Assembly: GCF_018977255.1 (NCBI RefSeq)
Contig: NW_024704761.1
Span: 1,860,001-1,924,000 of the forward strand
Source of the DNA: Callorhinchus milii
Lineage: Eukaryota
Length of the DNA: 64,000 nt
Reading direction: 5' to 3'
The notes under the pieces were generated by a model. That model searched no databases, was not told the origin of the DNA, and saw nothing but the letters and a program-made list of their open reading frames with translations. Position numbers and translations under genes: made by a program. Of this stretch, positions 16,881 to 42,325 are shown one piece after another. Every line of letters starts with the position of its first letter. The stretch's first letter is position 1.

Positions 16881-19800
16881 ATGACCAGTCTAATGGCCAG
16901 TTCCCTGCGGAGGCTCCGGGCTGTGTGGCCGGAGACAGGGACAGAGACAGGGACCCCAGGAGTCGGGCAGCAGGTACAGGAGCTGCATGTGCTCCAGCAG
17001 AAGAGGTGAGTGATCGGCCGGCTCTGAGCACTGCACTGCGGATAATAATAATAATATAATAATAATAATCCTTGCATTCGATATAGCGCTTTTCACATCG
17101 GGAGGACGTCCCAAAGCGCTTCACAGAACACACTGTAAAGTGAATTGACTGTATATTTGTGGGCGAACGCGGCGGCCAATTGCGCACAGCAATGTCCCAC
17201 AAACAGTCGTGGATTGAAAATGACCAATTTACTATTGTTTTTGGTTTTGGAGGGATTATTATTAGGCTCTGTGTGGAGTAAGGAAACTTGCCCAAGGTTT
17301 CGCCCTCTGCCTGGAATTGAACTCAGGTCTCTCACTTGCAAAGCGAGTGCTCTAACCACTGAGCTGCAGGACTCCAAGGAACAGGGGCAGGGAAGTAACA
17401 GCAGCAATAGCCCAGGAGAGACACACACAACACAGGTCCTCGTCAGATCGCTTTTCCGGGAGTAATAATCCCATCAAAAAAAAGTATTTAAAAAAAGATG
17501 ATGATTTGGTCACTTCAACCCCACGACTGTTAGTTTGTGGGACGTCGCTGTGCGCAATTGAATTGGCTGTCGCGTTTCGCTGCCCCCCCCCCCCACACAC
17601 ACACACACACAAAAATGTACAGTCAATTCACTTTACAGCGTACCCTGTGAATATCGTGTGTATCCCTCTCTAAAACCCTCGCTCTTTCGCTGTGCCTTTG
17701 ATCGTCTTGAAATTCCTCTGCTCGTTGCTCCCTCTCTGTCGTCTCGGGGAAACTCTCGAGGCCACTGATTGTACGTGGACAACAACCACAACAAAAGGCG
17801 TTTATGCCACGAAACTCATACGGCAGGGGTATGGGGGGGGATAAGGACAGGCTGACGCTCACTTCATCTCTGTAGCTCGAAGGTTGGCTATGGACTTAGC
17901 TTTAGTTCGATCCCAGCGATGCTGGTGTCTTCTCGGTCTCACTCTTGCTGTTGTTGCCCGCAGGATCAGCGAGTCCCCTCTCTTATACGCTGCCAAAGAA
18001 AACATGGTTCAGGATATCAAGAAGCTGATCCGATGCCCCTCGATCGACAACTTCCAAACAGGTGAACACGTTTTTCCTAAAGAAAAAGGGTCACTGCGGT
18101 TTGTTAAATCCGTTCTGTGATAGTCACAGGAGAGTGCCACATACCCATCCCTCCTCCCTCCGCACCACCATCAGTGACTGTGCCTTCAGCCACTTCGCCC
18201 CAAACCTCTGGAACTCTCTGCCTCGATCCCTCCGCCTCGCACCCCTCTTTATTCATCCCTCTTCGACCGCGCCTGTAGTCACCCCCCACCTCTCCACCCT
18301 CCCCGTTCTCCCTAACCTCAGCACTGTACGGTGCTCCTAAAACCTGGCTGAGGATCTGTTCACAGAGCTTGGCACAGGAGAGGACATGGGCTGCAGAGTT
18401 CTGAATGGTTTGCAGCTCGCGGAGGGAAGAGTTGGGAAGTCCTGCAGGGAGCAGGGAGGTAGCGTAGGATTATTATTGTTATTATTATTAGTGGACGCTC
18501 CCCCCACCACCCAGGGCTTTGGCCTGTCCACCTGCGTGAGGTCTTTCTCTGACGTTGCTCTCTCCGCAGGCACCATGGGGGAGACAGCACTGCACATCGC
18601 CAGCACGTACGGTAATTACCAGGCTGTAGTGACTCTTCTCGAAGCAGTTCCTGAACTCATCAATCTACCGATCACTGGCGAGCTTTACCAAGGTACACCC
18701 TGGCCTTTACCCTCGTCCTCCTTGTCAGTGATCTGCCAACAGGCTCCGATCAAAGCAATCAATAGAGGGACACACTTACTTGCAGCACTACAGTCCTCAA
18801 CCCACATTTAGTCTTCAGTCTTCCTCTATTCCAGAGGGACAGAGAGACATTACTCAAGAACAAAAAGACCGAGATTTTCCCTTAATCAATGTGTTTGCCA
18901 GGAGGTGGATGTAGGATATATTAAAGATACAACAAAGGCGTCTCAGACTGATTCCACTTTACTTAATGCAATTCGGCTCACTCACTCACTCTGTAATAAA
19001 CAGTGGTTTCATTGCTGCTACTTACCCACTCGCCCACCCCCCCCACACACCCCCCATCACCCCCACCACCCCCACCGGGCTCTGTAATTGTATATATAAA
19101 TATCGCAAGAGCAGCAGTACTGAAACACTGAAAGAGGCAATGATAGAACAACAGCCAAGATAAATAAATATATATAAATACACTCACTAAACTTTACAGT
19201 GTATCCTGTGAAGCGCTTTGAGGCGTCTCGGATGACGTGATGAGGCGCCGAGTCAAATGCCAGGATTATTATTATTATTATTATTGTACAATTGGTGTCG
19301 TGATTATGGCATTGAGGAGGGAGAGAGCCTGAGGCTCTGGGGTTGGACGGAGAACAGAAGTTGCCGTTTGGTTCAACAGGAGAAACATCGCTGCACATCG
19401 CGGTGGCGAACGGCAACGTGGGTCTGGTGAGAGAGCTGATCAGACGAGGAGCTGACGTGGTGACACCGCGAGCCACCGGAACCTTCTTCAGGCTGGGTGG
19501 CACCGGGATCCTTTACTACGGTAACAAGACGAGAGTTTGGGAAAATCAACACAATGATGCCAGTGTGGGGGGGGGAGGTGGGGGGTGGGGGGGGGATGGC
19601 GGGGTGTCAGCGCTCAGCTTCCCAGTTGGGGTGGAGGACGAGGGGTGGCAGCTGGTGGAATGTTATCTAAGCTCAAACAGTGGCTGGTTTGGTAAAGTCA
19701 CTGTTGATGTATTTAATGACATGGCTTTCAGTATCGATGCCCCCCCCTCCCCCTCCCCACCCACCCATCGGAACTCTCTCCTCGGTCTCACACCCCATCT

Positions 19801-21515
19801 CTATCCGTCTCTAAATCCCACTTTACAAAATTCACGTCCGCTCGGCTTTACAGTAAAAACCGTGCGGAGCGCTTGGAGAGGGGGAGCACTTTGAGGGCAA
19901 TTATCTGTCGGTAGTCATCTGTAAATGCACCAAAGGACAAGTTTGAGAACTTCAGTGAACGGTGCAATCTGATCCCGAGATCAGCTTCTGTGCTGGTTAC
20001 ACTGTGTTCCGTATCTGACTGGTTACTGATCACTGATGTCAGTCTGTCTCGGTTGTTTGACAGTGGTGCCCTATGAAGACAATCCTCCAGATATCTACAC
20101 GCCTCATTAGTTTCTCCTCAATGTTCTTTTCCCAGCCTCCGAGCAGCGGTGATTGAAACCCCGCATCATTAATCCTTTGGCCTTTATACAGGCTGCCCTT
20201 ATCTGTAGATCATCTCCCATCTGTTCTGTCCTCTCCTCGCGTCCAAGGTCCTGTACAGACACCGAGTGATAGCCTGACTCTCGCTGCCGCAGTCCTTGAA
20301 GCATTTGAACTCTGAATCAGAACGTGTTTCAGCTCGATCTGTGTTTCTGCACTAACGAGGGGCTCCGAGACCTCGCTCAAGCTGTTGTTGTTGTTGTTGT
20401 TGCCCCCCCCCGCCCGTTAGTTATTTCTGTGGCTGTTATCCCGTCTCCTACGCACGTCAACCCGGCTCAGTCCAGTGGCACTCTCGCCATGTTGAGTCAC
20501 AAGTCTGTGGGTTCCAGCCCCCGCATCGGGACTTTGAGCTCACGGTCCAGACTGACTGGTGCTCCGACGTAACGCAAGGAGGTGTTTTCAGGCGGAGGGG
20601 CAGAGAGGGAGGGGGTGAGGCGGAGGGGGAGAAAGTCGCAGGATTAGGGGCACCATGACTGAAGGTTCGGTCGCCAATGGTGACGAGGGGGGAAGGCGAG
20701 GGGGGGGATGCGCAGCGGCCAGGGTTACCTGAGCGGAGGAGTGGACAGTGGCGGTGGATGGGGTGGGGTGAGGTGGGTGGGGTGGGGTGGGGTGAGGTGA
20801 GGTGGGGATGGGGTGAGGTGGGTGGGGTGGGTGGGGTGGGGTGGGGGGGTGGGGTGGGGTGAGAGGGGTGAGGTGGGGGGGTGGGGTGGGGTGAGGTGGG
20901 TGGNNNNNNNNNNNNNNNNNNNNNNNNNNNNNNNNNNNNNNNNNNNNNNNNNNNNNNNNNNNNNNNNNNNNNNNNNNNNNNNNNNNNNNNNNNNNNNNNN
21001 NNNNNNNNNNNNNNNNNNNNNNNNNNNNNNNNNNNNNNNNNNNNNNNNNNNNNNNNNNNNNNNNNNNNGTGGGTGAGGTGGGGTGAGGTGGGTGGGGTGA
21101 GGTGGGGGGGGTGAGGGTGGGGTGGGGTGAGGTGGGGTGAAGGATACAGAGAGTCACAGAGAGAGGCAAGAGAGAGGCTGTTTCTGTCTCTACTTACGCC
21201 TCGTGATGCCCGGTGGCTGTGTCTCAGGTGAGCACGTGCTGTCCTTCGCCGCGTGTGTTGGCAACGAGGAGATCGTCAGGATCCTGATCGAGAACGGAGC
21301 AGATATCAAAGCGCAGGATTCCCTGGGTAGGTAGCCCGCTCACGGCTGTTTGCCTCGCGGCTCGTGATTGGCAAAGGGTAAACCAGCGAGGGTTGTCTCC
21401 ACTAATGATCAATAATAATAATATATTAATAATTATTAGCAGCGTCCCCACAAACAGCGGGGGGGGAGTGTGTGGAACCGGTTTTACCCTGGGGGGTTGT
21501 TGGCCAGGACACCAG

Positions 21516-21550
<35 letters not shown>

Positions 21551-24500
21551 TCCCTTCTTTTCTCTAATAGCGCCGCGGGATCTTTAGCGCCAAGAATCCT
21601 CCGGATAAAATTGGTCGCTCGCTCGCTCGCTCCACGGCTGCTTGTGGGACACGGCCGGGCGCAAATTGGCCGCCGCGCTCGCCTGCAAAATGCACAGTCA
21701 CTACGCTCGACCGTAAAAGTCCTGTGAGGGGCTTCGAGACAGCTGAACGATGTGCTAAGGCTGTGGTGTACGAATGCAAGGAATGTTATTGTTCAACGAG
21801 GGTGAGTGTGGAATAGAGAGGAGGAGGAGGAGGAGGGACACGGGGACAAGGAGGGGAAGCGAGCGTGTGTGGGCGTCTTCTCACTACTGATCCTCCCTCT
21901 CTCTCAGGGAACACTGTTCTCCACGTGCTGGTGCTGCAGCAGACACAGTTGCCGGTGGCCTGTCAGATATACGATGTCCTCCTGTCCTCTGAGTGGCCAC
22001 AGAACGAGGTCCGTCCCGACACCATCCTGAACAGGGACGGGCTGAGCCCCCTCAAGCTGGCAGCCGCCGAGGGCAACTTGCAGGTCGGACAGTCCGTGGC
22101 TGGGCAATGGGTCAGGGGCGTGGACGGTTACCAATGACTGTCCCACGTGCCAATCGCTGCGTTTGATACGGCGCCTGATCACGTCTTCTGGGCATCTCAG
22201 AGCACTTCACAGGATACACGGCGTAGTGACTGTATTTTGTGGGCGAAACACCCACAGTGTACAGTCACTACACTTGAGAATTCCCAATGAAGCCCTTGGT
22301 AACGTTGTGAAATCACAGCCACTGAATCCATTGCAATTATTATTATTATTATTGTTGTGATTAATGTTCCCCTCAGTCCTGTTGTGTTCAGTGTTCCCAT
22401 TGCTTGCTGTGTGTCAGATGTTTGAGCACCTGGTGAAGAAGCAAACGTGTGGTATGGAGCCCTTTGTCAGGCATCGGACCTCCACATACTACAACCTCTC
22501 CGAGATTGACTCCTGGGACGGCGACTGCTCTGTGCTCGACCTGGTGATCTCCAGCCATAAAACCCAGGTAAAAGCCCACCGGAGAGTGGAGTGGGCTATT
22601 GTTACGCAGTCGAGCACGTGGAGTCCTGGAGCTCAGTGGTTTAGAGCCCTCGCCTGGCCAGCGAGAGGAGCCGGGTTCGATTCCCAGCCAAGGCCAAAGG
22701 TTGGGCAAGTTTCCTTACTACCCGCACACACACGCACACGCACACACACGCCTGTTTACCGCGCAGTAAGTAGGAAATCGTTTGTTCCTACTCCACATTC
22801 TCCCCCTCCGCATTCTCGCTTCAACAACATGGTAAAGCGCCCTGGGACCTTGCCCTGCGTGAGGAGCGCTATATAAATGCCGCTGTTGTTATTGATAAAT
22901 CTCTTATTATGATTATTATTATCGATCGATCTCCCTCGTGTCCCGGTTCAGGCTCTGAAGCTGCTCCAGGTGGCTCCCGTGCAGCAGCTGATCAGTTTGA
23001 AGTGGGACAAATTCGGCAAGTGTTACTTCCGGCTGTTGTCCTGCACCTACCTCGCTTACATCATCATCTTCACCTGCTGCTGTGTCTTCCGCCCCCTCCA
23101 GCTACGGCCCGACAACGCCACCAATGATAGAGACACCACCATTTACGTGGAGAAGCCACTGCGGGTCTGTACACACCGCCTCTCCTCTTCTCAATTCCCC
23201 TCCTCTTCCCTCCACTCACTCGGCCTCCAGGGGGAGGGGGGAGACACACTTGTGAATAACTCCATGTGCTACAATCCTCCGGCAGATACAGAGAATACAT
23301 AATAGAACACATAGAGTCGACAGAGGGCATTAGAATTGTCATTTGCCTTGTGTATCTAGGACTTGGGCTTCGCTCTGTAACTCATTAAAACGCAGTCCGA
23401 AATAAGGTCCGTTTGTCCCGGCCGTTAACCACCACACCCCCTCTCTCTGGCAGGAAAGCTACCAGACCCCTGGAGACTATGTGCGTCTGGTGGGTGAGCT
23501 CATCAGCCTGTTTGGGGCCATCGCCATCCTTGTGATAGAGGTAAGCAACAGTCAAAGGTCTGGAACTCCCTCCGGCTCTCTCCCCCTCTCATTTTGTCTT
23601 TAATTCTCACCTCAAATCCCACCCCTGTGCCGCGCCCCCCCCCCCCCACCCCACCCCCTGACCAGCATGACAACAGCCCAACAACAACAACAATTTGCAC
23701 AGCGCCCCTCACGTAGGGTAGCGTCTCAGAGAGCTTGCCAATGGCGGAGCACGAGCCGGGCAGAGGAGGTGACCGCAGGCACGGTCAGTCAAAGAGGAAA
23801 CCGTTCAGGCGTGACCTGAGGACGGGAAGGGAAGGGGCAAGAAGGAGGGAAAGGGGAAGAGTGTTCCAGAGCTCTGGGGCGTAGCGGCTGAAAGCTCAGC
23901 CGCCCACGGTGGGTAGACTCATCATTGCTTCGTCCTCCTAGACGCACGACATATTGCGATACGGACCGAAGAAATACTTTGGCAAGTCAGTGCTGGGGGG
24001 GCCTTTCCACGTCATCAAGTGAGTTTCTTTTCTTTGCACCAATTCTGTTCTGACGATAGCAGTAATAGCCAGTGTGGGAATGGTCAGGGAAGGGCTCTCT
24101 CACCTGCGCTGTTTACATGGAGCAGTGCTGTGAGCCCCGCCAGCCCGCGAGTGTGACCTCGCTGCTCTGTCAGCTCTCCTGCTCACACACCCCGCGGTGA
24201 ACAAATAGCGTGAGAATTCCGGCTGTCAAAACACAGTTTCCACCGGTGTTGTCCCACATGGTGGTGGAATCTCACGCCGGGACCCTGATCCCACATCCCA
24301 CACTCTGCAAGTCACAGCTTTCTGCGGCGACGCACAATTAACCAACAGTTTCTCTCATTCAGCGTCTTGTTCGCGTGTTGCTTTTTGTGTGTGCATTTGC
24401 CTTACGCCTATCAATCTCTTTCTGACCCACTCTCCCGCATTGTTTTTCTCTCTCCCCCACAACACTTGCTATATTTTCCCACCCATTCCTCCCCTCCCTC

Positions 24501-26413
24501 TCCCCACGCCCCTCCCCGCTCTCTTCCCCCGGGCAGTGTGTCTATGGCAGTGCTGGTGCTGCTGGTTGTGTTATTGAGGTTGGCTGGGGTGGTGGGGCAA
24601 CCGGAGCCCATGTCGCTGGCTGTGGTGTTGGCCTGGTGTAACCTCATGTATTTCGCCCGCGGCTTCCAGCTGCTCGGACCCTTCAGCGTCATGATCCAGA
24701 AGGTGAGCAGCCCAGCCAGGAACACCAGGATCGTGCCGTGTCCAAGCCGGGAAGTGGGGCGATGCGGGTGGGGTGGGGGGGGGAAGAGCAAAAGTGGGGG
24801 CAAGTGAGGGAGTGGGGATGGGGGGAGGGGGAGCGAGAGGGCAGTGGGTGGGGGAAGGAGCGGGTGGGAGTGCGGTTGGGCGAGTTAGGGGGTGGGGGAG
24901 TGAGGGCGTGGGAGGGGGAGCGAGGGTGTGGGGAGTTAGGTGGGGATGTAATTTCTGCTGATGAGATTGTGTCTGTGACTCGGGACAGGTTCACTGGTTG
25001 CCTGAGCGGAGGTCGCACACTGTGTATCACCCACACCACCCTCTGGTGACCTGCTCTCTCTCTCGCTCTCTCTCTCTCCACAGATTATATTTCAGATTAT
25101 TCTGCCCTACCTGCTGCTCATGTTCGTTGTGCTGTTTGCATTCACATGTGGTAAGGACAGCCCAGCCCTTTCTCTGACACGCTCTCTCTCTCTCTCTTTG
25201 ATTCTCTTTTTCCCTCTCTCTGCCATTTCTGTCTCTCTCTCTCTCTCTCTCTGTCCTCTCCTTCCCTCTCATCTCTCTCCATCTCCTGGGTCTGTGCTGG
25301 GAATGACAGGACATGTCCTTGTCCCAGGTATCTACCTGTCTTTCCAAGAGGACCCCGACAAGTGGGAACGCTTCAGTGACTTCAGCACCACCCTCTTCAA
25401 CATCTTCATGCTGTTCTTCGGGCTGGTCAACATGCCGCTCAATGGGAAAATGCAAAAGCCGGACATGGCACAGCTGCTGTACACCGCCTACACACTCCTC
25501 GCCTTCGCCCTCATGGTCTTCCTCATCATCCACGTCATGTCCGAGCTCATCCGCAGGTTGATCAGGGAGCGGGACGAGATATGGAGAGGCCAGGTACGGA
25601 AACAAGTACATCCCCTGGCGCAGTGGTTAGCGCGCTCGCCTGGCAAGCCAGAGGACCTGGGCAGGGGTGGGGGTGGTGGAGAAACCTTACGCAACTTTCC
25701 TTACTCCACACACCTCTGTTTACCCGGCAGTAAGTAGGAACCCGGTTGTTAGTCGATTGGCAGATCGCTTTCCAGGGATAATAATCCCAAAAAAGAAACT
25801 GTTTATGGGGACGCCGCGGTGCATAAGTGGCTGCCGTGTTTCACCCACAAAATACAGTCAATTTACTTTACAGTATATTCCGTGAAGCGCTTTGAGATGT
25901 CTCGAAGACTTGATGTGGCGCTGTATCAAATGGCAGGATTATTATTGTTCCTGTTTTCCTGAAATCTTTCCCGATATCCAGGTGGCGGCCACCACATTGC
26001 TGCTGGAACGGCGACTCCCCAGATGCCTCTGGCCGCGACTGGGAATCTGTGGGACACCATATGGCCTGGGAGACAGCTGGTTCCTCCGGTGAGTTACCTG
26101 TCCACCTCCCCCAAGAGTGGACACCAGGATTGTTCACGCTGCGCACGAGGATTGCACACGGATTTAAATCCAGATAAGGGGAATTTCTCCCCATCAGTTT
26201 GCCGGGAGTTTCAGTGTGAACAGGGTGATGGGAACGGGCCTTGATGTCAGTGTGAGCAAAGCCCAGATTGAAAACAATCGGCTCAGCGATTCCGACAGCG
26301 TGGGGAGGAAGGGGAGGTGTGATGTCCTGCAAACTGAGCCCCGCTCACTGCCGTCTGTGTGTCTGTGTCTCCACAGGGTGGGCGACGGGAAGGACACCGA
26401 ATGCTGCCGGTGA
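16881..26413 (+). CDS. TRPV5/6 (ECaC)-subfamily cation channel, divergent paralog A; 15 coding exons, 643 aa
   Basis: Exons (all GT-AG, phases consistent): 16881-17005, 17964-18061, 18570-18692, 19380-19520, 21228-21326, 21908-22083, 22418-22567, 22952-23164, 23454-23540, 23942-24018, 24537-24702, 25084-25150, 25328-25593, 25982-26088, 26377-26413, totalling 1932 nt. Motifs: LLQQKR|ISESPL-type start, ankyrin repeats ([31 protein letters not shown]), S4 [20 protein letters not shown] box [26 protein letters not shown]. Exon sizes 98/123/99/176/213/87/77/166/67/107 match the TRPV5/6 gene structure. Confidence 0.95.
17041..17375 (-). mobile_element. tRNA-derived SINE, complete copy (TRPV-A intron 1)
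   Basis: Head GAGTCCTGCAGCTCAGTGGTTAGAGCACTCGCTTTGCAAG...GAGTTCAATTCC (A and B boxes); tail GTGAAGCGCTTTGGGACGTCC...GCGCTATATCGAATGCAAGGA(TTA)n. Dozens of fragments of this family occur throughout the window. Confidence 0.9.
20755..21140. repeat. (GGGGT/GAGGT)n G-rich simple repeat containing an assembly gap
   Basis: Direct reading; N run at 20904-21068. Confidence 0.95.
25614..25946 (+). mobile_element. tRNA-derived SINE, long form (TRPV-A intron 13)
   Basis: GGCGCAGTGGTTAGCGCGCTCGCC head, internal CAGTAAGTAGGAACCCGGTTGTTAGTCGATTGG segment and family tail. Confidence 0.8.
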
Positions 26414-27524
26414 GGGCCTGAAACAGGGTCGGGTCGGGGGTGGGGAGCGGAGAGACTGAGGGAAGGTCGCAGGAAGACAAACGTCCGAACAAGATCAAGG
26501 CTGAGCGCAAGGCAGTTTCTCTTTCTCTCTCTCTCCCGTGTCCCGGCTGACAATCTTCCCAAAATAAATAAAAATTGATTCACTCACTCCATGGCTGTTT
26601 GTGGGACATTGCTGTGTGCAATTGGCTGCCATGTTTGCCTGGAAAATACATAGTCACTCCACTTCACTTCACAGTATTCCCTATGAAGCGCTTTGAGACG
26701 CTTTCTGTAATAATCATCCTTGCATTTGATAAAACGCCTTATCAGGTCTTCGAGACGTCTCAAGGGGAGGAAGGGGAGACTGGGGACGTCTGTGACCTGA
26801 GATGCCAATCACAATGTTTCCAATGGGACCTCTCGGGCTCCAAGTTCGGCTGATGTTTAGCAAATCGCTGAGCGTTCAAGCGAGGAATCAGCTGTGATCT
26901 CTCTCTCTCTCTGGTAATGAGTGGCACAGGCTGTACCTGGCGAGACCAGATCTTATCAGCGCGGCTCCCAGTGCCTGTGAGACTCTCAGCACTGCTCTGA
27001 GACACACCCTTCTCTGTGTGTGTGAAAGCAGTGGCTGTGTGTACTCAGGTGTGTCTCTTGCATTTGATCTTGTACCTTATCACGTCGCTGAGACAACAAC
27101 AATAACAACTTGCATTTGTATAGCGCCCTTCACGCCGGGCGGCGTCTCAGAGCGCTTAACAACGGTGGAGCCCGAGACCAAGCCAAGGGGAGGGGAAGGT
27201 GACCGTAGGGGCTGTCGAAGAGGAAGATTGTCAGGCGCGACCTAAAGGTGGGGAAGGAGGGGGCGAGACGAAGGGGTTGAGGGAGGAAATTCCAAAGTTT
27301 CGGGGCACGGCGGCTGGGCAACAACAACAACAAATGTCCTTTGGTACCCCACACCTCGATTTATAAAGCCAAAAGATTTTATCTGCTTTTTTGACAGCTT
27401 TGTCAACTTTAAGCGCTTTGGGACGTCCTCCCGATGTGAAAAGCGCTATATCAAATGCAAGGATTAGTTAACTTGTCCAAACCACTCTCTGACGACTGCA
27501 CACAGACGCTGATCTGATTAAAGG

Positions 27525-27530
27525 TTTATT
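27525..27530 (-). terminator. Putative polyadenylation signal of TRPV-B
   Basis: TTTATT on plus = AATAAA on minus, about 610 nt after the stop codon. Confidence 0.55.
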
Positions 27531-28138
27531 GTATTTTATGTTCACCGGAAACGTTACATTTAAAAGTTAGCCGTGGAGCCGTGCGTGCAGCAGGATTTCT
27601 TTCCCCATCAATTCCCCGCGATGCTCATTATGAACAACAAGTACCAGGTGATTACCAGAGACACATTAAATTACTGAGCAATTACGGTGCTGCGCCAAGT
27701 CTCTCTGTACAGCTTCCCTCTCTTCATAACATCCACAGCTCCAGCCCACTCAGGTTAGTTATACGACCACAAACCACCCAGATCCCGTGATTAGAGACGA
27801 TTTAAAGATTAAAGCGAAGGAAATTCGGGCAAATCTAGTCGCATTCATTGGAAATAATCTGCAATGTCAAAAGTGATGGAGCCTTCAACCAAACTAGCTC
27901 GGCAATGAACTACGGTCACTAACTCGAGACAGATACACACACCACTGGTCTCCGCATTCATACACACGCTGGTCTAAACCTTCCCAAAGAGCTTCATAGA
28001 CACTTTCATATATACCTTATACACCATGATACGCAGCGCATATAGCATATAGCCTGATAGCACAGACAGATAGACACAGACCTGGCAGAGAACTACAGGA
28101 GGAAGGCGGGTGGGAGTTGACGCATGTCCTGCTGCCAC

Positions 28139-31100
28139 TCAGTGCACATGGTGACCTGGTGATTTGTGGTTGGTGGGCCTGTGCCTCGGGCCGTGCGGCC
28201 TGGTGCCCGGGCTCAGGCCGCGTTTCCTGCCGTCGGCCTGTGGCTGGACCGCCCGCCCTGTCCTGGTCCAGTCTCCGGCCGCTCTGCTCTCTCCTGTCGT
28301 CAAGTCCCTGGAGTTGCTCGGGGCAGGTTTGTCATTCCTGTCCTCCACCCTGCAACGCAAGAATAAGACACGGATAAGATTCCTTTCCTCGTGTCCGATA
28401 TAAGATTTTTATTAGCCGTCCGTTGTCCTTCATAGAGCTTTGCTCTCTGGAGGTGAGGCACCTGATCACATCCTCTGGACGTAATGCTTGAGAGGGGACC
28501 TGATGCAGGTTAGATTAGACAATAAAAGCGCTTGATAAGGTGAAGGTTGATTGTCGGCCAGGACACGGGGACAGAGAAACTCCCTTCTCTTTGTGGGCAG
28601 TGCCACGGCACCTTTAACGTCCACTCACACATCTCACCAAATATACCAACTGTTGTCCAGTCCGACCTTCTCCCCCCAGGTCCCAGCTCGAGGCCACAGC
28701 AGCCGGGGCAGCCTCCGCTCCAGGTGAAGTGTTGACGCGATGACCTGTGAGGAAAAGAAGCCAGATCAGGGGAGTTCCAGAGGGTGGGGCCCACCAAGGT
28801 GGAGCGGGCAGGGTGGGGGATGCTGAGCAGGCCGGTGCTGGTCGAGCAGACGGAGGGGACAGGTTGGTAGGGTTTTAGGAGGTCACATAGATAGGGAGGG
28901 GCAAGACCGTGAAGGGATTTAAAGGCCAGGATTTGAGGAGACAGAACGAGCGGCAGGTACCTGCGCCCGGTAGATTCTGTTGCGGTTCGGGACCACTCGG
29001 CGTAGGGTCCCCGCGATCAGGTTGATGAGGAGAATGGCCATCATTTGGAAGGTCATCATGATGTAGGCCACGTACAGCACCTTGATCATGTAGGGTGTGT
29101 AGACCTCGTAGTTGAGCGGGATGTCCAGCAACCCGAAGAACAGCATGAACATCAGGAACATCTCGTTCTTGAAGCCGTCGAAATACACCCACTTTTTGGG
29201 GTCAAGCTCTTGGAATATCACGTACAGGCCTGGAACCAGGACGCAGACGCAGCCCTTTACAATTTATTTATTTGGTCGGCCGGATGTCTGGCACTCGGGG
29301 AAAACCATCACCGTTGCTTAAGAGTCTCCAAACCCCCCACCCCCACACACACACACACGGAAATCCCAGAGATAGATTGTTGGAATGGAATGCGCTCTCT
29401 CTCTCTCTCTCTGGAGGGACACATCCTGCTTACCTACATCACGCACACACCGACGTCTCAGGCACACACTGAAGGATTGGGGCCGGGGGGACGGGGGGGG
29501 GGGAGTGAACGGAGGGATTAACAATGGGCACCTGTTGTGAATCCCACAATGATTATTAACATCAGGAAGAGATACGGCATCAAATTCTCCAGAACAATCT
29601 GAGGAAAGAGGAACAAGAGCCAATGTCAGCATTAGACCAACTGCAGCCAACAATGTGCGGGGGGAGGGGGAGTGGGGGGGAGCGGGTGCAGTGGCCGAAA
29701 GTGGAGGGGAACTAACAGCGTAGAGGGAGCTTTACTCTGTCTCTAACCCGTGTGGACGGACAGCGTAGAGGCAGAATCGATGATGGCTTTAAAGAAGGGA
29801 ATTGGACAAATATCAGAAAGGGAGAAATATAAAACATGTCAGTGGGGGGAGAGAGCGGACGGAGATCGGTGAGGGAGAGCCGGCATAGACGCGAAGGGCT
29901 GAATGGCCTCGTGCTGTGCTGTCCATGCCCCTGGTTGTCTGATGGGATTGTGTGCGGCTGGAAGGCTGCAGTGTAACAGTGCAGTTGGCACGGACTGGGA
30001 TGGCTCACCTTGTGGATGAGGATGGAGAAGGTGCCGAGAGTCTGGAATCCGCGGGCAAAGTGGATGAAGTTGCACCAGGCCAGGACCATAGCCAGGGACA
30101 TGAAGATCCCCTCGGACCCCGCACTGCTCAGCCTGAGCACGAGGATCAACAGCACCAGACACGCATAGCAAATACTGTCCCCGGTGGAGTTCAGATCAGG
30201 GACACGGTAAAGCAGGAGGGGAACTCGTCAACCAGTGACTGAACCGTCGCCGCCAATAACAACAACAACTTGTATAGCTCCCTTCGCGCGAGGCAGTGTC
30301 GCCGAGCGCTTAACAGCAGCGGAGCCTGACGCCAAACAAATACTCTCGAAGAATTCCCGCCACTGATACAGCACTCGAACCTCTCAAAGCACTTCGCAGA
30401 GATAGAGAGCTGTGGGCACACTGCGCCAGATAATTTGCACACAGCAGCGTCCCACAAACAGCCAAGAAGTGAGCGGCCAATTTTATTTGAAAAATGAAAT
30501 GAAAACCCACGTACAAGAAATAAAATCTTACTTTTATGTATATAATAATAATAATAATCCTTGCATTTGACACAGCGCCTCATCACGTCTCCGAGATGTC
30601 TCAAAGCGCTTCACTGAATGCACTGTAAAGTGAATTGACTGTATTTTGTGGGCGAAACGCAAGGGATACCTCGAATATTACTCACTTTATAGCGTGGAAG
30701 GGTCCTCCGTAGACAGTTTTCCCAAAGTAACCGGACACTCCATACCGTACCATGTCAGAAATCTAGGCAGGAAAACAATACACGGCTCAACACAGAGAGA
30801 GAGCAAAGCTCAAATGCTGAACAAAACATAATAATAACAACAATCCTCGCATTTGATATAGCGCCTCATCACTCTTCACAGAAAATGCTGAAAAGTGGAT
30901 TGACTGTACGATTGTGGGCAAAATGCAGCAGCCGATCGACCTGAATGAGTAATGCTCCTCGATGCTCTGGTATTGGTAATCGGTGAGTGGCCCACAGGTC
31001 TCTTCGGTCCCGTTAGGAGGAGCATCCCAGCCCCTTAGACATCACTCAACCGCCACGTGCCTGGCAGCCATTTAGCAGCCGACTCTCCAGTCTGGGTTTG

Positions 31101-34100
31101 GAGACTCTTTAGTGTTCTAGCGAGGAATCTCCGTGTGTCAGGCACCCGCTGACCTGGCAGGTACACACACACACACGCACACACACACACGCGCGCGCGC
31201 GCGGCAGTGTAACCAGAGCCAGGTCCTCACCTCTATGAAGAGGATGGCAATGGCTCCAAAAACGCTGATGAGCTCTCCCACCAAGCGGACCTGGTCTTTG
31301 GTTGAGACGTAGCAGAGCTGGAACATAGTCACAGGCACAGGGTTGTTGGCGGTAATGATAATGATGATAATAATAATAATCCTTGCACTTGGTATAGTGC
31401 CTTATCATGTCCTTAAGATGTCTCAAAGCGCCTCACAGGACATACTGTAAAGTGTAGTGACTGTGTATTTTGTGAGCGCAACGCAGCAGCTAGCTACTTA
31501 CAAAGAGCCACGGAGTAAGTGACCAATTTAATCGGGGTGACTGTCAGCCAGGACACCGGGAGAGAGAAACCCCTTCCTCTTTTCGAATAGCGCCGCGGGA
31601 TCTTTAACCTCGCGCTTTCCGTTATCTTTCCCCTCCCCCAACCCCACCTCCATTCGGCTCCCACCCCCGGTCTGGGTGCTTGTCCTCCTGAAGTGAAAGG
31701 CTCTGGACGGGTGTAAGATGTATCATGTTGCATTGCATTGTACTGTCTGGTGTTGGCCGCTGATGGCTATTCTGGTGCTGACCTTCAAAGGAGCCTCCAC
31801 CAATAGCTGTGTGTCTTCGGGATCGGTGACCACCTCTGGCCGTGGGATGAGGGGCCGGAAGGTGCAGCAGAGGGTGAAGATGATGATGTAGAGCAGGTAC
31901 AAGACACTCAGACAGCGGAAGTAATACTTCCCGTACCTGTTCCACTTGAAACTAACCAACTCCTTGATCGGGTGAAGGTCCAGGATTTTCAGAGCCTGAG
32001 ACCCAGCAGATATAATAATAATAATCATTATGATAATAATAATTATAATAATAAAAATGAATATTGGCAATACTGATACAAATAATAACAATGATAATGT
32101 AATAACAATCCTTTCATTTGATACTGTGTCTCAACAGTTTGTCGAGAATGTCTCAAAGCACATCACAGGACTGTTAGGTGTAGTGACTGTGTATTTTGTG
32201 GGCAAAGGAGGGGGCCAATGTGCACATGGCAATGTCCCGTAAACAGCCATGAAGTGATTGAACAATGTTATCCGGGGGATTGTCAGACACAGAGAGAGAA
32301 ACTCCCTTGTCTTTTAGAATAGCGCCACCTGAACAGGGACCTTTGCACCTCTTACTCCGCTGTTACTCTGAACTCACACTGGATGTTTGCCAGGTCAGCG
32401 TCTCTGTCCGACATTCCCCTCTCACCTCAATCTCTTTACTGAACACAACCAGGTCCAGGACCGAGCAGTTGTCGTCCCAGGAGTCAATGCCGGAGATATC
32501 GTAGAAGGTAGTGGAGACGGATTGGAAAAACCATTGAAGACGACGTTCTCTCTTTCTCAACAAATGCTGAAACAACTGCAAGGAAAGAGCAGCAGCTCAA
32601 GTGGCCTGACCGTCCCCGAGCCCAGCGGAGTGCCAGCCAGGCCCTGCTCCAGCTCAAACCCCCACTGCTGGTTATGTGTCTAGATACTGGTTATTGTATG
32701 TGGGGAGTAGGGCAGGGACTCTGACATGGAAGTTAATGTGTGTGTTTGTGGTGAGATATGGTGCATTGCTTACAGTAATGCATCTTGCCTTCCAAGAGAG
32801 TCAGGAACTCTCCTCAAAGCCCTTCATGGGATTGTGAACCATATTGGTTAGAAGCTCATGATATTGCATAGACCACATGAGGGTTAGATTAGTTAGTCGG
32901 ACGGTCAGTCGGTCAGTCAATTAGTTAGTGATAGAGTTGGTGGCTTCTGTGAGTGAACTGTACATGTTCTATGATTCGCTGTGGTTCTGGGTGTGTGGGG
33001 AGCTGTGTGTTGGATGGGTTACATGGTCTGGCTAGTGGGCACGACTGTCCTGTGGGAAGCACTGAGTTAGCCTGGGTCTGTGTCCTGTCCTGTGTAATGA
33101 CGGAGTTGTTGTGGGAGCTCTGTCAGGTTCAGGTCACAGTGTTGTGTGGCTGCTGCGGGGGCCACAACACCCACCCTGTGAGCAGCTCAGGGTGAGGAGC
33201 TTTCATTCCCACCTGCACGTTGCCCTCCTGGGCTGCCAGTTTGAAGGGAGTCAGCCCAGCCTGGTTTGTCATCGTTTCCACTGTGGCCCCGTCTTTTGGT
33301 TCGAGGGAAAGAATCAAATCAAACATCTCCGTGACTTTCGTCTGGGTCTGGAGTACCAGGTGGTGGAGAACAGTGTTACCTGCAAGATGGCCAGAAGGAG
33401 TGACCCAACACAGTGTCAGACGGTCTGAGACTCAGCGTCAGTTAGACTGCTCCAGAGAACATCCTGTGCCCAGTGCCACAGAAGGAACTTGTTTAAGGAA
33501 TTCTGTACACTTTACCCTCGGTGAACAGGACACCCACATGACTTACCCAGGGAATCCTGTGCTTTGATATCTGCTCCGTTCTCTATCAGGATCCTGACGA
33601 TCCCCTCGTTGCCAACACACGCGGCGAAGGACAGCACGTGCTCACCTGAGAGAGAGAGAGAGGGAGAGAGAGAGACAGACAGACAGACAAATTAAAAGCT
33701 GCAAATAGAAACAAATAAATCTCTCTCTCCAAAAGGAAGCAGTGACATTGAGGTCTATGGGGAGTCACTAAAATCTTTTCTGCTATAATTTTAGATCAGA
33801 AAATTCCATATAAAGTATCTTAAAGATTTACTATTTGGAAGGAGGAAAACCGGTCTCTTTGGGGCTGAGCTGATTCCAAGTTAACACAGCTGGAGATGGA
33901 AGATGGGAATCGAGCCCACCCTCTGTGCCGGTCTCTAGTCCGGTTCCTGAGCCCGGCGGGTCCACAATATTCCAGGGCACTCACTGCTGATGACAGCACA
34001 GCCCGGCCTGGCTCTTCGGAAGGTCCCTGGAAGGGCCGACCAGTCACTGGGGGCAGGTACTCAGCTCCCACAAGATAAATCCCAGATAACATCCAAATTG

Positions 34101-36780
34101 TGCGCAAACCATTTTCATCATTAATTCAATAATAAAGACAACGTTTCCTCACAGTTTCTATTTTCCCGTTCCCGTTGAGCGCATTCACAAGGTCCCCAGC
34201 TCCAGATGTTTCTTTCCCGTCCCTGGTTCATTCTTCGTTGCTCACACCTCCTTTACCAACACACCACCCGGCCACCGACCTCGGTAACGCTACATACGGT
34301 ACCCAACAACACCCGTTCTTACCAAAGTGAAAGAGTTTCTTCGCATTCCTTCTGAAGAAGGTCCCAGTCGCTCGCGCAGTCACCACGTCTGCTCCTCGCC
34401 CGATCAGTTCTCTGACCAAACTCACGTTCTCATTTGCCACCGCGATGTGAAGTGCCGTTTCCCCTGATAAACAACCAAACGACAAGGTCACAGCCTGTGG
34501 ACAATAACAACAGTCCTTGCATTTGATGTGGCGCTTTATCACGCGGCAGTCAGTCCTATACCTTCATACATCTGGGAGGTGACCGGCACGTTGATGAGCT
34601 CTGGAGCGGCTTCGAGAAGTTCCGTTGCCACTTCACAATTGTTGTAGAGCACAGCGACGTGTAAGGCCGTCTCCCCCATCACTCCTACAGAGAGAGGAAC
34701 AGGCAACCTGTTACATTCCTTTCAACCGCTCGGTTACCGCTGACTTGCTGACGGAGTCCCTGTAGGGTAATGGTTAACGTGCTCGCCTCGCAAGGTTCAA
34801 TTTCCAGGCGGGGAGAAACCACAGGTAGTCACCAAATCTCAGGCTTTATAGACAAGAGGACTGACTATAAGAGCGAGTAGGTAATACTGGGTATTAGAGA
34901 TTAAATATTGAACTTGACTTCAATATTTGAAGTTGCAGTTGGAGTCTTGAGTTTGGTTTTGAGCCCATGACACATCGACACGAGAGTCCTGGAGAGGACC
35001 CAGCGGAGTTGACGAGGCTCATATCAGGGAAGATACTTTATCGCTATGGAAAGAGGCCTGAAAAGTTGGGAATGTTTGGATGTAGCTGAGAGGTTCAAAA
35101 GAAGTTTTCAAAAGTCACGAGTATCTTTAATAGGGAAAGAGATTAACCTCTGTGATCGATGAGGAGGGAGCAGGGAATGGGATTAGAGTAGACAGCTACA
35201 GTGGGGGAGCGAGCACCAGCACAGATGTGGTGGGTGGATCGAGCAGGTTTGACCAGTTCCAAGTTCCCTCATCTTCTCTTTCACCACTTTGTCTCTAATG
35301 TGATAACTTTCCCATGACATGACTTATCGCTCCTCATCGGGCTGAGCTGGGGTTTTTTTGCCTTGTTTTAACAATCCTGTACAAACAGTCCTACATTAGC
35401 AATTAGCTTCCTGGCTCTGACATTTGCAGTGAAACCCGTCAAGAGTAGGAATGACTCAGGGTCGTTATGTTGCAGGAATGACACGGTTTGGGGAGATGCT
35501 TCCCTGTTATTTCTGAGCTGCCGGTCAATCTTAAAACATTTATCAAGTTAGGTCCGCTAGGCTGACACTCCATTACAGTCACACTCACACACTCTGATTA
35601 CAAAGGTCAACAATATATTCCTTCATTGCATTTGATATAGTGCTTCTCATGTCTTCCGGACGTCTCAAAGCGCTTCACAGAATATACTGTAAAGTGAATT
35701 GACTGTTACGTTTTATGGGCGAAACGCGGCAGCCAATTGCATCTCTCACCTTTTTCAAAGAGATCAACTGTGGGACATTCAAGGAGCGTTTTAACAGCGT
35801 CCACATCATTCTCTCTGGCAGCCAAAAAGAGAGGCGTCTCACTGATCCTATGGGGAGAGGCCAGCGGTAAGAACAGCAAAGAGCAGCCATCAGCAGCCAG
35901 ACCATCAGTACAACAATTTACATCGATACCCTCCTGTGTTGCATTGTCAGAGGTGCTGTCCTTCAGTTGAAATCCTGGGCTGTCAAACCCCCAGAAAAAG
36001 ATGGAAGAACAAATCATCATCTGCTTCCCGTCGGCTTCTCATTATAGACTTTGCAGGTTTGGGATCGGGATGCCATCCGATATTCGGGAGTCCCGAGACA
36101 CAATTACCCCTTTAAATTAGACATTAAACCGAGGTCCCGTCTGCCCATTCAGGTGGACGGTAAAGATCCTGTGGCGCTATTCAAAGAGGGAAGAGAGTTT
36201 CTCCCTCCCAGAGTCATAGCCACTTTCTGAAGGAGATTGATGTTTTGTTCACCAGGTATTAGTTTGTCAAGTCTTAACAGCCCGTTTCACCAACGATTAT
36301 AGGAACTATGTTTGTTTTACATTGCCACATACATCCACATTCTCCCTCTTGTTGATCAATATATTTCCTGAATTTCTCCAGTTCCTTGTTTCACATCGTA
36401 ATCACTTGGGATGAGAGCCACATCGATAACACCACATATGCAATCGATTTGATTCTTTATGATACCTGGCCTGTTACAGCTGATTGTTGCTATAATTATG
36501 ATTATTATTGCAGTTCCCATATTATTATGTCGGAATATTGGGAAATAGCAGCGACTGCCAAACACCGAAGGGAAGATGTGATTCCGAGTCCAGGGAGCGC
36601 AGACCGGCAATCGCTGGGGAGATCAAGAGTAAAGCTGCTGTGAACTCACCTCTGGTTCTGCAGCAAGTGAAGCTTATCAATTCTATCCTGTAGCTCTTTC
36701 CCGGGCTGTAATCTGCAGCTCAGCTCCCTGGCAAACCTGGACAGGATCTCTCTCCCTCTCCCGGACAGGAATCCCGGCAT
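28139..36780 (-). CDS. TRPV5/6 (ECaC)-subfamily cation channel, divergent paralog B; 15 coding exons, 701 aa
   Basis: Exons (minus strand): 36780-36650, 35847-35750, 34684-34562, 34463-34323, 33645-33547, 33379-33213, 32575-32426, 31995-31783, 31317-31231, 30762-30686, 30174-30009, 29598-29532, 29229-28961, 28744-28638, 28349-28139, totalling 2106 nt with an open frame. Begins [16 protein letters not shown]...LHLLQNQR|[12 protein letters not shown]; filter [11 protein letters not shown]; TRP region NRNRIYRAQ. Same intron positions and phases as paralog A. Confidence 0.95.
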
Positions 36781-38309: not shown

Positions 38310-41300
38310 TCACTTCAGCTGGGTGAGTGACACTGTGACTCTGTCACCCACCCACAAGGCAGGGTACAGGGGCTCCACAAACACCGAGTCAAACCTGTGG
38401 ATCAGGGTCATGGTGTCGGTGACGCCATAGAAGGAGACGGTGCCTGCAGTGCAGTCCAGGAACACACCGACACGCCCATACTCGGCCGGGCTCAGTTTGG
38501 TTTCATGGCCGTTGTGCCAGGCAGAGTAACTCTGGCTAAACAGCTGCACGGCCCAGGATGCCCCGTTCTTCCCGATCCGGGATTCCTCCTTCCGTTCGAT
38601 CGTCTTGTAAGCGACCCCCACGAACACCCACTGATCGCTGAGCTTCATCTCCCAGTAATGCTGGCCCTGAGCAAAGCCCTGTGAGCACAGCACCTGCCAC
38701 TCGCTCTCAAAGCGCTCTGGGTGGGCAGGGCACTGCTGCTTTTCCTTGTGCGAGACCTTCCGCCCGGCCTTGGACACAGTGAGGGATTGGTGAGCAGTGT
38801 TGGCATCAAAGGTGAGCTGGCTGTAACCTGCAGGACACACCACAGATTATTACAGGACGGAAGGGAACTAGTGCCAGTGACGTTAAACTTATACAGTGAC
38901 ATCCCCCCACCACCCCTAACCCGGAGGAGAACTCCTGTAGCTCAGTGGTTAGAGCACTCGCCTTGCAAGCCAAGAGGACATGGGGTGGATTGCCGGGCAG
39001 GGCAAAACATTTGGCAAGTTGTCCTTACTCCACGCATCACTGAGTACATGTGTCACTGCCAATGACAACGGGTTCAGGCTGGGCCGCGATGCCCCGATCT
39101 CAGCTCTCGCTGCATTTGTAAGACAAGAATTTCAACTTACTGTGCAGGAACTTGCCCCTGATCTGCAGGTCGATGGGCAGAGACCGGTTTGGCCCAGCCT
39201 CACACCTCTCAGCCACCTCCGGACCTGAGAAAGTGAATTACATTGAAGAGGGTCACAATTGTGTATAATACAATTCTGTTCCCAGTTTTATGTAAAACAA
39301 ATACTTTTGATGAGCAATGTTATAAAACCGCACAGCTTGCCATTGAGAGCACTGCCTGGCAAGCTTTACCGCTGCTTGTCCAGCTCGGACCATCCTATTC
39401 ATTAGGGCTTTGCTTGCAGGGTTAACAGGAGCGGAGTGGGATGACTCCTTGTCCCAGTGACTGGTCTGCCCTTCCAGATCCTGTGGGTGAGTCAGGCTGG
39501 GCTGTGGTGTCATCAGTGGTGCCCTGCAATACCACGGACCCGTCTGGCTCAGGAACCGGACTAGAGACCATTGTAGAGGGTGGGCTCAGTTTCTCAGCTC
39601 AACTCTGTTTAGTCTCTCTCTCTGGTGTGTGATGGCCTTTCTGCTCTGGGCTGTGTTGGGGTCAGTTGTAGGGAGTTGGTGTCTAGTTGTGCCGGAGACT
39701 GAGATGAAAACCCACGTGACAGCTCAACGACACGGGAGCACCAGGGATCGGCATGTGGGGGTCTGGCAGAACCTCACCAGGAATCTCCTCTGCCCGCTCC
39801 ATTTGCCGGGACACTCCCTGCAGGTCTTTGTGGATCAGTTTGGAAATTGCCTCAAGTGCCTTCGTCACGCCTCCTAGCGTGGTGTCCAGGGCGAAGTCAC
39901 AGGGCACCCACACGGGCTCCTCACCCATCGCTTTCCACGTGTTTGTTTCCTGAGAGAACTGAGGCCGGGGGTAGCATATCAAGACACACGCACACACAGC
40001 AGAGAACACATAACATGATACAGTACAACATCACGTAGGGCTTCTGAGTCTCAGCGTGTCTTCACTGAAATGTGACTTGGGTGCATGGATGACTGAGGGG
40101 AGTTTCCCTGTATTGCGGGCCCTTGGCTCTTGCCAGCCTGCGCTTAATATTTTCCGGAATTAGGGAAGCAGGAGGGGTCCCTCCGGAGAGGGGGAGAGCG
40201 CGCATTCCATTCCAACAAACCCCGGGTATGTCCGTGTGTAGGTGCGATGCACGGACTCTTCGGAGCACGGCGGTGGGTTTCCACACGTGTCAGACGGACC
40301 GAAGCAACAGTACGGTAATTGAACCTGAATAGTTTTAATGGTGTGACCGACCCAGCGTCGGCGTGATCGCCCGGTCACCTGTATGATCTGCAGGGCGTCA
40401 CTGCACCTCAGGGTGGCTTCGAGCTGCTGTTTGCTGCGGCTCAGCCCGGCTTGCCGCTCCTCCAGCTTCTGCAAGACGCCGTCCGCCTGGCTCAGCGCCA
40501 TCCGTTCCTCGCGCTCTATCAGCACCGTCACCTCTGCCCCAGCCTCCACCAGCGCCCGAGCCAGCACCCCCAGCTTGTTCACGTAGTTCGTCTTGGCCTG
40601 AGAGGCCGAGCCCTGAGGGGTAAACCCCGAGAGAACAGCGACGGTCAACAATGCTCATACCTCCCTGCTATAATAATAATAATAATCCTTGCATTTGACA
40701 CGGCGCCTCATCACGTCTTCCGAGACGTCTCAAAGCGCTTCACGGGATACACCGTACAGTGAACGGACTGCGTATTGTGTGGACGAAAGATATTTGCCAG
40801 CAACGCTGGGCGCGACGCTTGGCTCCCCTCCCCGCGCCCCCTGGCCTCCCCTTCCCAAACCCGCAACGGCTCACCTTGACGGCTTCGACCCGCTCTTTAA
40901 TCTCTCCGATCGTCCTGTCGGTGCTCTTCAGCTGTCGCTCCATCTCCTCGTATCTCGCGATGAGTTTCTTCTATTTTTCACGACACGGAAACGGTGTCAG
41001 TGAAACCAAACAGCCGAGCGCCGCTTAATAAGAATCACAACCATAATCCTTCCTCCTCGCTGCTTGTGCTACTTGAAAAGAGCGTCCGACAAACTGCCGT
41101 GGATTGAGTGACCAAATTATCATTATTATTAATATTATTATTGTTTCGTAGTTTTTTTTTGGTTAAGACACTATTTACTCCTGGAAAGCCATCCGCCAGT
41201 CGTCTCAACGACTGGGGGCCACTACTCACTGCTGGACACGCAGAGGCACGTGGAGCAAAGGAAACTTGCCTCCCGCTTCGCCCGGCCCGAGAGACGAACC

Positions 41301-42073
41301 CGCCCGCGGGGCGAGCGAGCGAGGGGGGTGCCCTGTGTCAGAAACGCCCGCCGGCCCCGCGATCAGCATTCCTGCGTCTCCCCCGTCCAGAGGCATAACA
41401 AAACATTGACGGGTTATGTGGGGGGGTGGCGGGGAGCGGGGTGGGGCCAGTTGAAATGGAGGGAGGGCAGAGCGGGTGGGGGGGGGGGGGCCGGGTGCGG
41501 CCCGCGGGCCGCCAGTTGGGCCACCCTGAATTATTATCATCGTCAGTACACGGTGGTGGGGGGAGTGTGTACCTCCTGCAGTGTCTTCTCCTCCCCCAGG
41601 ATGGCCAGGTCGTGCCCCCGGTGCTGGGTGGCGGCACAGGCCGAGCACACGCCGAGCCGGTGGTCCCTGCAGTACAGATCCAGGGCGGCGCCGTGCGCGG
41701 GGCAGCGGGGGCCCGGCTCCGGGCCCAACTCCAGGCCCAGGCCCAGGCCCAGGCCCGGCTCCAGGCCCAGGCCCGGCTCCAGGCCCAGGCCCGGCTCCAG
41801 GCCCAGGCCCGGCTCCAGGCCCAGGCCCGGGCCCGGCCTCCCGCCGCGCCGCCGCCATCCCTCCACCACCTCATGCAGAGTGACGTTCCGGCTGAGCGGC
41901 AGCGGCCCCGCGGGGAAGGCGCGGCGGCAGGTGGGGCAGTGCAGGCAGCCGCCGGTCCGCTGCCGGTCGAAGGCGTCGTGGATGCACCGAGTGCAGAAGC
42001 TGTGGCCGCACGGCACCGTCACCGGCTCCCGGAACAGCTCCAGGCAAATGGCGCACGTCAGCCGCTCCTCCAT
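38310..42073 (-). CDS. TRIM65: Tripartite motif E3 ligase (RING, B-box2, coiled coil, PRY-SPRY), TRIM65-like; 6 exons, about 534 aa
   Basis: Exons 42073-41573 (MEERLTCAICLELFREPVTVPCGHSFC...CPTCR; B-box CPAHGAALDLYCRDHRLGVCSACAATQHRGH), 40970-40875 (96 nt), 40612-40379 (234 nt), 39949-39778, 39224-39141, 38827-38310 (LTFDANTAH...GQHYWEM...EPLYPALWV). The domain call is firm. The symbol rests on position next to MRPL38-FBF1 as in human 17q25; TRIM47 or another TRIM16/25-class paralog is not excluded. Confidence 0.8.
39325..39612. mobile_element. About 290-bp unclassified dispersed repeat
   Basis: Modules GCTGCTTGTCCAGCTCGGACCATCC and CTGGCTCAGGAACCGGACTAGAGAC recur at about 33880-34075 (inverted), 50430-50635 and 60775-61033. 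Confidence 0.6.
41711..41838 (-). repeat. Coding 18-bp VNTR, (EPGLGL)n, in TRIM exon 1
   Basis: GGCCCGGCTCCAGGCCCA units on plus; translates GPGLGLEPGLGLEPGLGLEPGLGLEPGLGLGLGLELGPEPGP. Confidence 0.9.
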
Positions 42074-42097
42074 CGCCGCTCCTCCATCGCCGCGCCC

Positions 42098-42325
42098 GGC
42101 GGGCGGGTCTGTGCGGGTGACACGCCCCCCGTTGGGCGGGTTTGTGCGGGTGACACGCCCCCATTGGGCGGGTCTGTGAGGGTGACACGCCCCCGTTGGG
42201 CGGTTTTGTGCGGGCGACACGCCCACCGTTGGGCGGGTTACACGCCCCATCGGGTGATTTTGTTTCACGCCGCCCCGCCGCCCGTTGGGCGGGTTTGGAC
42301 GGGTTTCACGCCCCCATTGGGCGTG
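42098..42325. repeat. About 31-bp GC-rich minisatellite immediately upstream of the TRIM ATG
   Basis: About 7 degenerate copies of GGGCGGGTYTGTGCGGGTGACACGCCCCC(G/A)TT. Confidence 0.85.

Follow-up and report, generated by a model that had tools for sequence, protein, structure and literature searches.

Can calmodulin still plug the two epithelial calcium channels whose genes lie tail-to-tail in the genome of Callorhinchus milii? The stretch of DNA analysed, called the window below, comprises 64,000 nucleotides of contig NW_024704761.1 (assembly GCF_018977255.1, positions 1,860,001 to 1,924,000 of the forward strand), and coordinates refer to it unless stated otherwise. Gene A (16881..26413, + strand) has 15 coding exons for 643 amino acids and a product identical to P0216 (XP_007886999.2), while gene B (28139..36780, - strand) has 15 coding exons for 701 amino acids, its start codon being inferred from resemblance to shark N-termini. 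In mammalian TRPV5, K115 of calmodulin plugs the pore via a cage formed by W583 (PMC6093632, PMC6179994), and in both A and B this position is occupied by arginine. Since an arginine could not form the cation-pi cage and would repel K115, the plug would be unavailable, and it is very probable that calmodulin cannot plug either channel.

Both genes are already published and named (PMC9664204, PMC7250927, PMC11979771). Table S1 of PMC9664204 lists XP_007886999 as chTRPV5-2, and B is inferred to be chTRPV5-3, a name based on our tree and on the adjoining accession, which carries it there. In the gene models all introns of A and B are GT..AG and the frames are open throughout, and interrupted frames, missing splice sites or relaxed conservation, as expected of a pseudogene, were looked for in both genes and not found. 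A quick maximum-likelihood tree of 48 rows placed A and B in one clade (support 100) within TRPV5/6 (99), separate from TRPV7/8 and TRPV1-4, with A grouping with nine shark/ray proteins (99) and B with eight (100), while the sister relation of this clade to chTRPV5-1 came out without resolution. Neither gene belongs to the TRPV7/8 clade or lies at its locus. Ankyrin repeats, six transmembrane helices, the TRP helix and the 15-exon layout are all present, the fold being modelled for A only (AlphaFold, pLDDT 80.6, TM 0.87 to human TRPV6). In short, both genes are intact and spliced and represent chondrichthyan duplicates of TRPV5/6, the epithelial calcium channel.

Position 583 and the C-terminal tails

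The plug requires four indoles (PMC6093632), the single replacement W583L abolishes inhibition of TRPV5 by Ca-calmodulin (PMC6179994), and W583 mutants, of which Y, F, Q, L and A were tested there, lead to cellular Ca2+ overload (PMC5379628). The residue is encoded in exon 13 together with the pore helix, filter, S6 and TRP box. This exon lies at 25328..25593 (+) in A, spliced in contigs of the runs X1 and X2, and at 28961..29229 (-) in B, backed by the gene model and a contig; that both runs are RNA is a guess of the search tool, backed by their GT..AG joints, and is not on record. The translations aligned to residues 510-596 of rabbit TRPV5 without a gap from the pore helix through the TRP box, and the CGC codons that the original prediction had placed at 25552..25554 (A, +) and 29000..29002 (B, -) were confirmed, both arginines falling in the W583 column of a 147-row alignment.

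A wider survey for R583, which had been proposed along with the codons, combined three homologue searches and one representative search (one of the four listing the best 120 of 765) and gave 144 rows in which residue 583 is aligned; the isoforms P0269, P0028 and P0213, which have no S6, and the own-species models P0001 and P0011 were left out of the counts, and P0227 was counted as chTRPV5-1. The shark/ray orthologues comprised 12 proteins from 11 genera for A and 13 proteins from 12 genera for B. Arginine was found in 26 of 27 A/B rows, namely in A, B and 24/25 orthologues (11/12 for A, with Q in Pristis, and 13/13 for B), versus none of the 117 others, where Trp occupies the position in 107 rows and S, T, N, L or F in the remaining 10. 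The residue is thus widespread in the clade of A and B and confined to it among these rows. Its presence in both paralogues and 24/25 orthologues, together with the support of 100 for the A+B clade, indicates that it predates the split between chimaeras and sharks, and most simply it would have arisen once, before both the duplication and that split. Chimaeras and sharks separated about 400 million years ago.

The tails were examined with profiles of the two calmodulin sites, trained on 90 relatives with W583 (86 distal and 76 proximal windows), and compared with a shuffled null; held-out canonical channels, e.g., P0227, P0027, and P0024, were recognised at p 0.002. The last coding exon of A (26377..26413, +) consists of 11 codons and a TGA (26411-26413), and the A tail scored at chance. 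For B (28139..28349, -; 69 codons), the only segment of interest, GDWTRTGR at about 28253-28276, lies in an 11-residue stretch scoring -14.5 bits against the distal profile (shuffle p 0.88), and a proximal site was not found (profile p 0.60). Hence the claim that neither tail carries a recognisable calmodulin motif stood, and the contigs back both last exons: one X1 contig joins 26087 to 26376 across a GT..AG intron and runs on through the stop to 26453 with no mismatch, so that a possible donor at 26410 is unused in that contig, and B exons 13-14-15 are joined in one contig of run X2. An X7 contig ends at 26393, before the A stop, and run X4 yielded nothing here. Alternative last exons with calmodulin sites, which would have contradicted the claim, were not seen in the spliced contigs, though the contigs of such runs drop rare variants and minor alternative last exons could escape them. 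The likely 3' untranslated region of B (27522..28138, -) ends near an AATAAA at 27530-27525 and is covered over 27522-28198 by an X1 contig, contigs being strandless. When 26089-28637 was translated in six frames, the best score was 5.5, within the shuffled null (median 2.2, 95th percentile 7.7), and a scan of the same interval with a profile of shark A tails found no hidden exon.

Other candidates for a calmodulin site were rejected as well. Splicing of A from donor 26410 to a hidden exon was unseen in the sole covering contig, and no motif or tail homology lies downstream. A relic-like WGAERLREGRR near 26441 in the A 3' untranslated region scored 2.7 bits, inside the null, and the database models P0217 and P0218, which give A other last exons, showed no motif by eye and no read support was seen for them.

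Among the relatives, the proximal YxxxF site, which binds the N-lobe, is missing by pattern in 27/27 A/B rows, with weak traces (p 0.025-0.05) in a few. The distal WxxL/I site, which binds the C-lobe, is absent from both A and B of this species, and its Trp is missing in 13/13 B orthologues, which retain an LHILRR-like trace. However, a distal W-x-x-V-R site of the GWQMVRQRR type is kept in 10/12 shark/ray A proteins (p 0.002-0.035), the other two being from skates. R583 and a calmodulin docking motif can therefore coexist, and the coordinated loss of cage and tail sites suggested by the original prediction does not hold for the clade, as 24/25 orthologues have R583 while most shark/ray A proteins retain the distal site. 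The truncation of the A tail is later than R583 and, within the set compared, occurs only in this lineage. In other lineages the two losses do tend to co-occur, with the distal motif missing in 8/10 rows without Trp and 6/107 rows with it, in rows that are not independent and with some tails possibly mispredicted; it is simpler to assume that tail sites decay step by step once the cage is gone.

Further replacements in the filter and lower gate

The alignment shows W583R to be accompanied by many other fixed changes in the gate, which the original prediction had overlooked. In the published mechanism, the pairs D489-T581 and Q473-R589 stabilise the open state and A566 serves as a hinge (PMC6093632), hydration of the open pore is suggested to depend on an S6 asparagine (N572; PMC6219692), and D489-D580 binds Mg2+, which locks TRPV6 closed (PMC12592368). 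According to the same work, human TRPV6 gives no current with D489A, D489N or D489E and still conducts with D580R, and lower S6 rotates by about 100 degrees between states, residue 580 facing K484/D489 when S6 is all-alpha.

Compared with this, D489 and N572 are replaced in both A and B. Gene A has I489 (25096..25098, +) together with L581 (25546-25548, +) for T581, the partner of D489, as well as F572 (25519..25521, +) and N542 for the filter aspartate (25429..25431, +), and these four residues and H576 were found in 12/12 of its shark/ray orthologues. The aspartate ring at the filter is thus absent from A, while B retains D542 (29123..29125, -), as do 13/13 of its orthologues. In B, T566 for the hinge alanine and I572 (29033..29053, -) are likewise shared by 13/13 orthologues, which also have K489 (N in this species) and Q or H at 580 (G in this species); its E488-N489 (29584..29589, -) takes the place of the canonical G488-D489 and reads E-K in sharks and rays. 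E488 was identified in 25/25 shark/ray A and B proteins and in B of this species, whereas A of this species has Q488. Among the 93 other top hits, D489 and T581 occur in 93/93, N572 in 92/93, D542 in 89/93 and G488 in 86/93. Q473 and R589 are retained in this species and mostly replaced in sharks and rays. Such replacements, fixed per clade and in A combining D489I with T581L, point to selection and not decay. Over 19 conserved sites in S6 566-587, a region picked after the data had been seen, A lost 9, B 12 and chTRPV5-1 only 1 (Fisher p 0.019, 0.003 and 0.33).

Over residues 576-591, B has 4 basic and no acidic residues and A 4 of each; horse TRPV5 and human TRPV6 carry 1-2 basic residues against 4 acidic ones. 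The outer pore loop is net acidic in both A (4 basic, 5 acidic) and B (3 and 6). A also retains E580. Judged by these counts, an anion pore gains no support in A, and the inner mouth of B would be net basic. Apart from that, the TRP box of B (28970-28993, -) has Pro at 587 and Tyr replacing Trp593, the latter being retained in 13/13 shark/ray B proteins.

With regard to mammalian TRPV5 and TRPV6 as a whole, A and B share the exon layout, the ankyrin-S1-S6-TRP fold (TM 0.87 for the A model), about 50% identity, R470, K484 and I575, and B in addition D542. In contrast, both have replaced W583, D489, N572, E535 and H582, with further replacements at D542 and T581 in A and at A566, D580, M578 and G579 in B, and both calmodulin tail sites are missing in this species.

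Readings of the pair

What do channels of this kind do? We lean slightly towards A and B being gill cation-entry channels that have given up both plug and Mg2+ lock, the filter of A being weakened too, and that are suited to Mg2+-rich seawater. Their common ancestor would have replaced W583, D489, G488, E535 and N572 and lost the proximal site; next, B would have lost the distal Trp, and A would have lost the distal site in the chimaera through an early stop. In sharks and most rays the distal site retained in A would likely be a calmodulin tether with another use, e.g., trafficking control. Loss of D489 would also abolish the intracellular Mg2+ lock, with D542N divalent ions would block the filter of A less strongly, and both effects would suit Mg2+-rich seawater. 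The replacement D542N lowers Ca2+ affinity about a thousandfold, with permeation remaining. Channels with D542N conduct and lose slow Mg2+ inhibition (PMC2266600), calmodulin controls TRPV5 trafficking independently of Ca2+ flux (PMC11649520), both genes are expressed mainly in the gill of this species (PMC7250927), and gill expression was described for a catshark (PMC11979771).

Regarding the loss of the plug as originally claimed, the missing tryptophan cage and tail sites thus held in both channels. The hyperactivity described for W583 mutants cannot be transferred to A and B, as D489 and N572 are also replaced in both and substitutions of D489 abolish TRPV6 current; with gate changes pulling both ways, hyperactivity cannot be read off W583 alone.

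Several points weigh against the reading as gill entry channels. With the putative hydration asparagine N572 now F or I, homomers might not conduct. An arginine ring at the inner mouth, which according to the original prediction may change conductance or charge selectivity, would presuppose R583 side chains that face the pore. Teleost rows in the 147-row alignment keep D489 and most keep W583, and marine bony fish in general keep canonical residues, which weakens the seawater rationale. B of this species carries N489, one of the replacements (D489A/N/E) that kill human TRPV6 current (PMC12592368), W583R is not among the W583 mutants described in the available parts of PMC5379628, and calmodulin contacts at the ankyrin skirt exist besides the cage (PMC6093632). 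A literature search by title and abstract, with subscription journals mostly outside its coverage, found no currents of these channels.

Alternative readings concern the ring, the subunits and the ions. R583 may point away from the pore: with N572 and D489 gone, S6 would adopt an all-alpha register in which R583/R584 turn towards S5 and have the new E488 as partner, no arginine ring would form, and gating would take a different route. This is possible though doubtful; it overlaps the other alternatives and touches the ring only, as the plug would be lost either way. The presence of E488 in all 25 shark/ray A/B proteins and in B here, versus G in 86/93 others, speaks for it, as do the turn of lower S6 by about 100 degrees between states and the placing of 580 opposite K484/D489 in the all-alpha form (PMC12592368), but A of this species combines Q488 with R583 and Pristis A combines E488 with Q583, so that covariation is not strict. 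It is unlikely, in our view, that A and B form an obligate heterotetramer in which neither subunit conducts alone and a mixed pore (N542/D542, F572/I572, E580/G-Q-H580) works. Both proteins were found in six genera, i.e., wherever this could be checked. Heteromers have precedents in mammalian TRPV5/TRPV6 and in the insect pair Nanchung/Inactive. In PMC9664204, -2 and -3 occur in all four chondrichthyans studied while -1 was not found in two, and the changes in A and B differ in a complementary way, both genes being expressed in gill (PMC7250927). On the other hand, catshark paralogues differ in secondary tissues (PMC11979771; numbering unmapped to A/B), tandem duplicates often persist without forming heteromers, and heteromer binding and co-expression at the level of the cell are predictions.

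An altered ion selectivity, by which the arginine ring and the loss of acidic residues would make the pair non-selective, anion-passing or a non-conducting modifier subunit, seems improbable. Both lack E535 and D489, A also D542 and B also D580, and the stretch 576-591 of B is purely basic in its charges; yet A retains E580 and is neutral over these residues, the outer pore loop is net acidic in both, D542 persists in 13/13 B orthologues and human TRPV6 with D580R conducts (PMC12592368). We consider it very improbable that calmodulin inactivates A and B by a route independent of W583 and the known tail motifs. Shark A proteins have kept the distal site over a long span (10/12), additional ankyrin-skirt contacts are seen in the structure (PMC6093632), and the fast inactivation of TRPV6 is independent of calmodulin (PMC7250927), so that some Ca2+ feedback may remain, but A has only 11 residues past the last conserved strand, the B tail scores at chance, and W583L by itself is sufficient to remove Ca-calmodulin inhibition (PMC6179994). 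Distinctly unlikely is the most far-reaching version, an ancient two-subunit channel of chTRPV5-2 and chTRPV5-3 with filter, hydration asparagine, Mg2+ lock and cage rebuilt, which would be adapted to seawater, differ in selectivity and gating from any recorded TRPV, possibly pass anions and be the sole TRPV5-lineage channel left in chimaeras. In a complex prediction of the B tail with an intronless calmodulin-like protein and four Ca, the score was 0.11 against a mark of 0.34, which speaks neither for nor against binding. The genome holds two such intronless calmodulin-like open frames, L013:1258-1701, with an N-terminal extension and the plug-loop lysine retained, and L014:1501-2010.

Relatives and neighbouring genes

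Compared with published accounts of chTRPV5-2 and -3 (PMC9664204, PMC7250927, PMC11979771), we deal with the same genes, the same translocated pair and the same gill expression. These papers deal with phylogeny, synteny and expression, and they describe the clade as calcium-selective; in their available parts position 583, the gate changes and currents of these paralogues go unmentioned, and 'W583' is absent from PMC7250927. The search by title and abstract, with most subscription journals and the supplement of PMC11979771 outside its coverage, likewise found nothing on these residues or on chondrichthyan TRPV5/6 currents. A and B are a real, clade-wide variant of a known channel. Gating and feedback of TRPV5/6 are generally taken to depend on W583, D489, N572 and D542. 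A natural pair that replaced them and retained the replacements in chimaeras, sharks and rays alike is a ready test case for the S6 gate and the calmodulin plug. It also bears on whether the distal calmodulin site, kept in shark A and lost in this species, has a role beyond pore block, questions the assumption that every chondrichthyan TRPV5/6 copy is calcium-selective, and bears on calcium handling in the gill, above all in species reported without the canonical copy.

The closest paralogues are chTRPV5-1 of sharks and rays (P0227, P0030) and TRPV7/8-type channels, which have the G-L-x-D-x-P filter in common with B but, unlike A and B, retain W583, N572, D580, T581 and a distal W-x-x-[IV]-R. 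Other, independent and lineage-specific TRPV5 duplicates without W583, making up the 10/117 rows with S, T, N, L or F and never R, come from polypterids (P0266, P0042), frogs (P0029, P0039), a caecilian (P0238, P0254), a newt and a snakehead, and include P0086 and P0037. Polypterid P0266 shares F572 and N542 with clade A by convergence and has no distal Trp, while the two caecilian copies retain the distal site. Plug loss therefore appears to recur, the arginine and its depth of conservation being particular to the A/B clade among the 144 rows.

An exon-wise search of the own genome, a draft assembly, with A exon 13 and ray chTRPV5-1 found no canonical chTRPV5-1, and section 3.4.1 of PMC9664204 likewise reports none in this species. 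A match on C740 was rejected as chTRPV5-1, as it looks TRPV7/8-type. One TRPV7/8-type gene on C11 retains W583, D542 and a GWDAIRKN tail with the distal site, so that the animal still has a likely pluggable relative. A second one, L003 (G000:C11:18380475-18380717), has F583 and E replacing D at the filter position in the alignment; its last exon could not be located. The match on C740 (G000:C740:585-19327, L025-L026) covers exons ~5-11 of a further TRPV that is nearer to the TRPV7/8 type than to chTRPV5-1, with no pore exon found within the 40 kb read; together with the two C11 genes it would make three, versus two listed in PMC9664204.

Gene B is flanked by a PRY-SPRY (TRIM-like) gene at 38313-42300 (-) and FBF1 exons at about 49400-51500 (-), which fits the reported translocation away from the ancestral TRPV5 locus. 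Exon 5 of A (21228-21326, +) and B (33645-33547, -) share 97% DNA identity, while the rest of coding exons 1-14 range from 49 to 73%; the likeness stops at the exon borders, suggesting that the inverted paralogues have recently undergone gene conversion. The UniRef record P0011 joins the N-terminus of A to B sequence from exon 5 onward, with the junction at the near-identical exon. Such a chimera would either stem from the assembly or represent a recombinant or inverted allele; shark N-termini match the arrangement of the window, not that of P0011.

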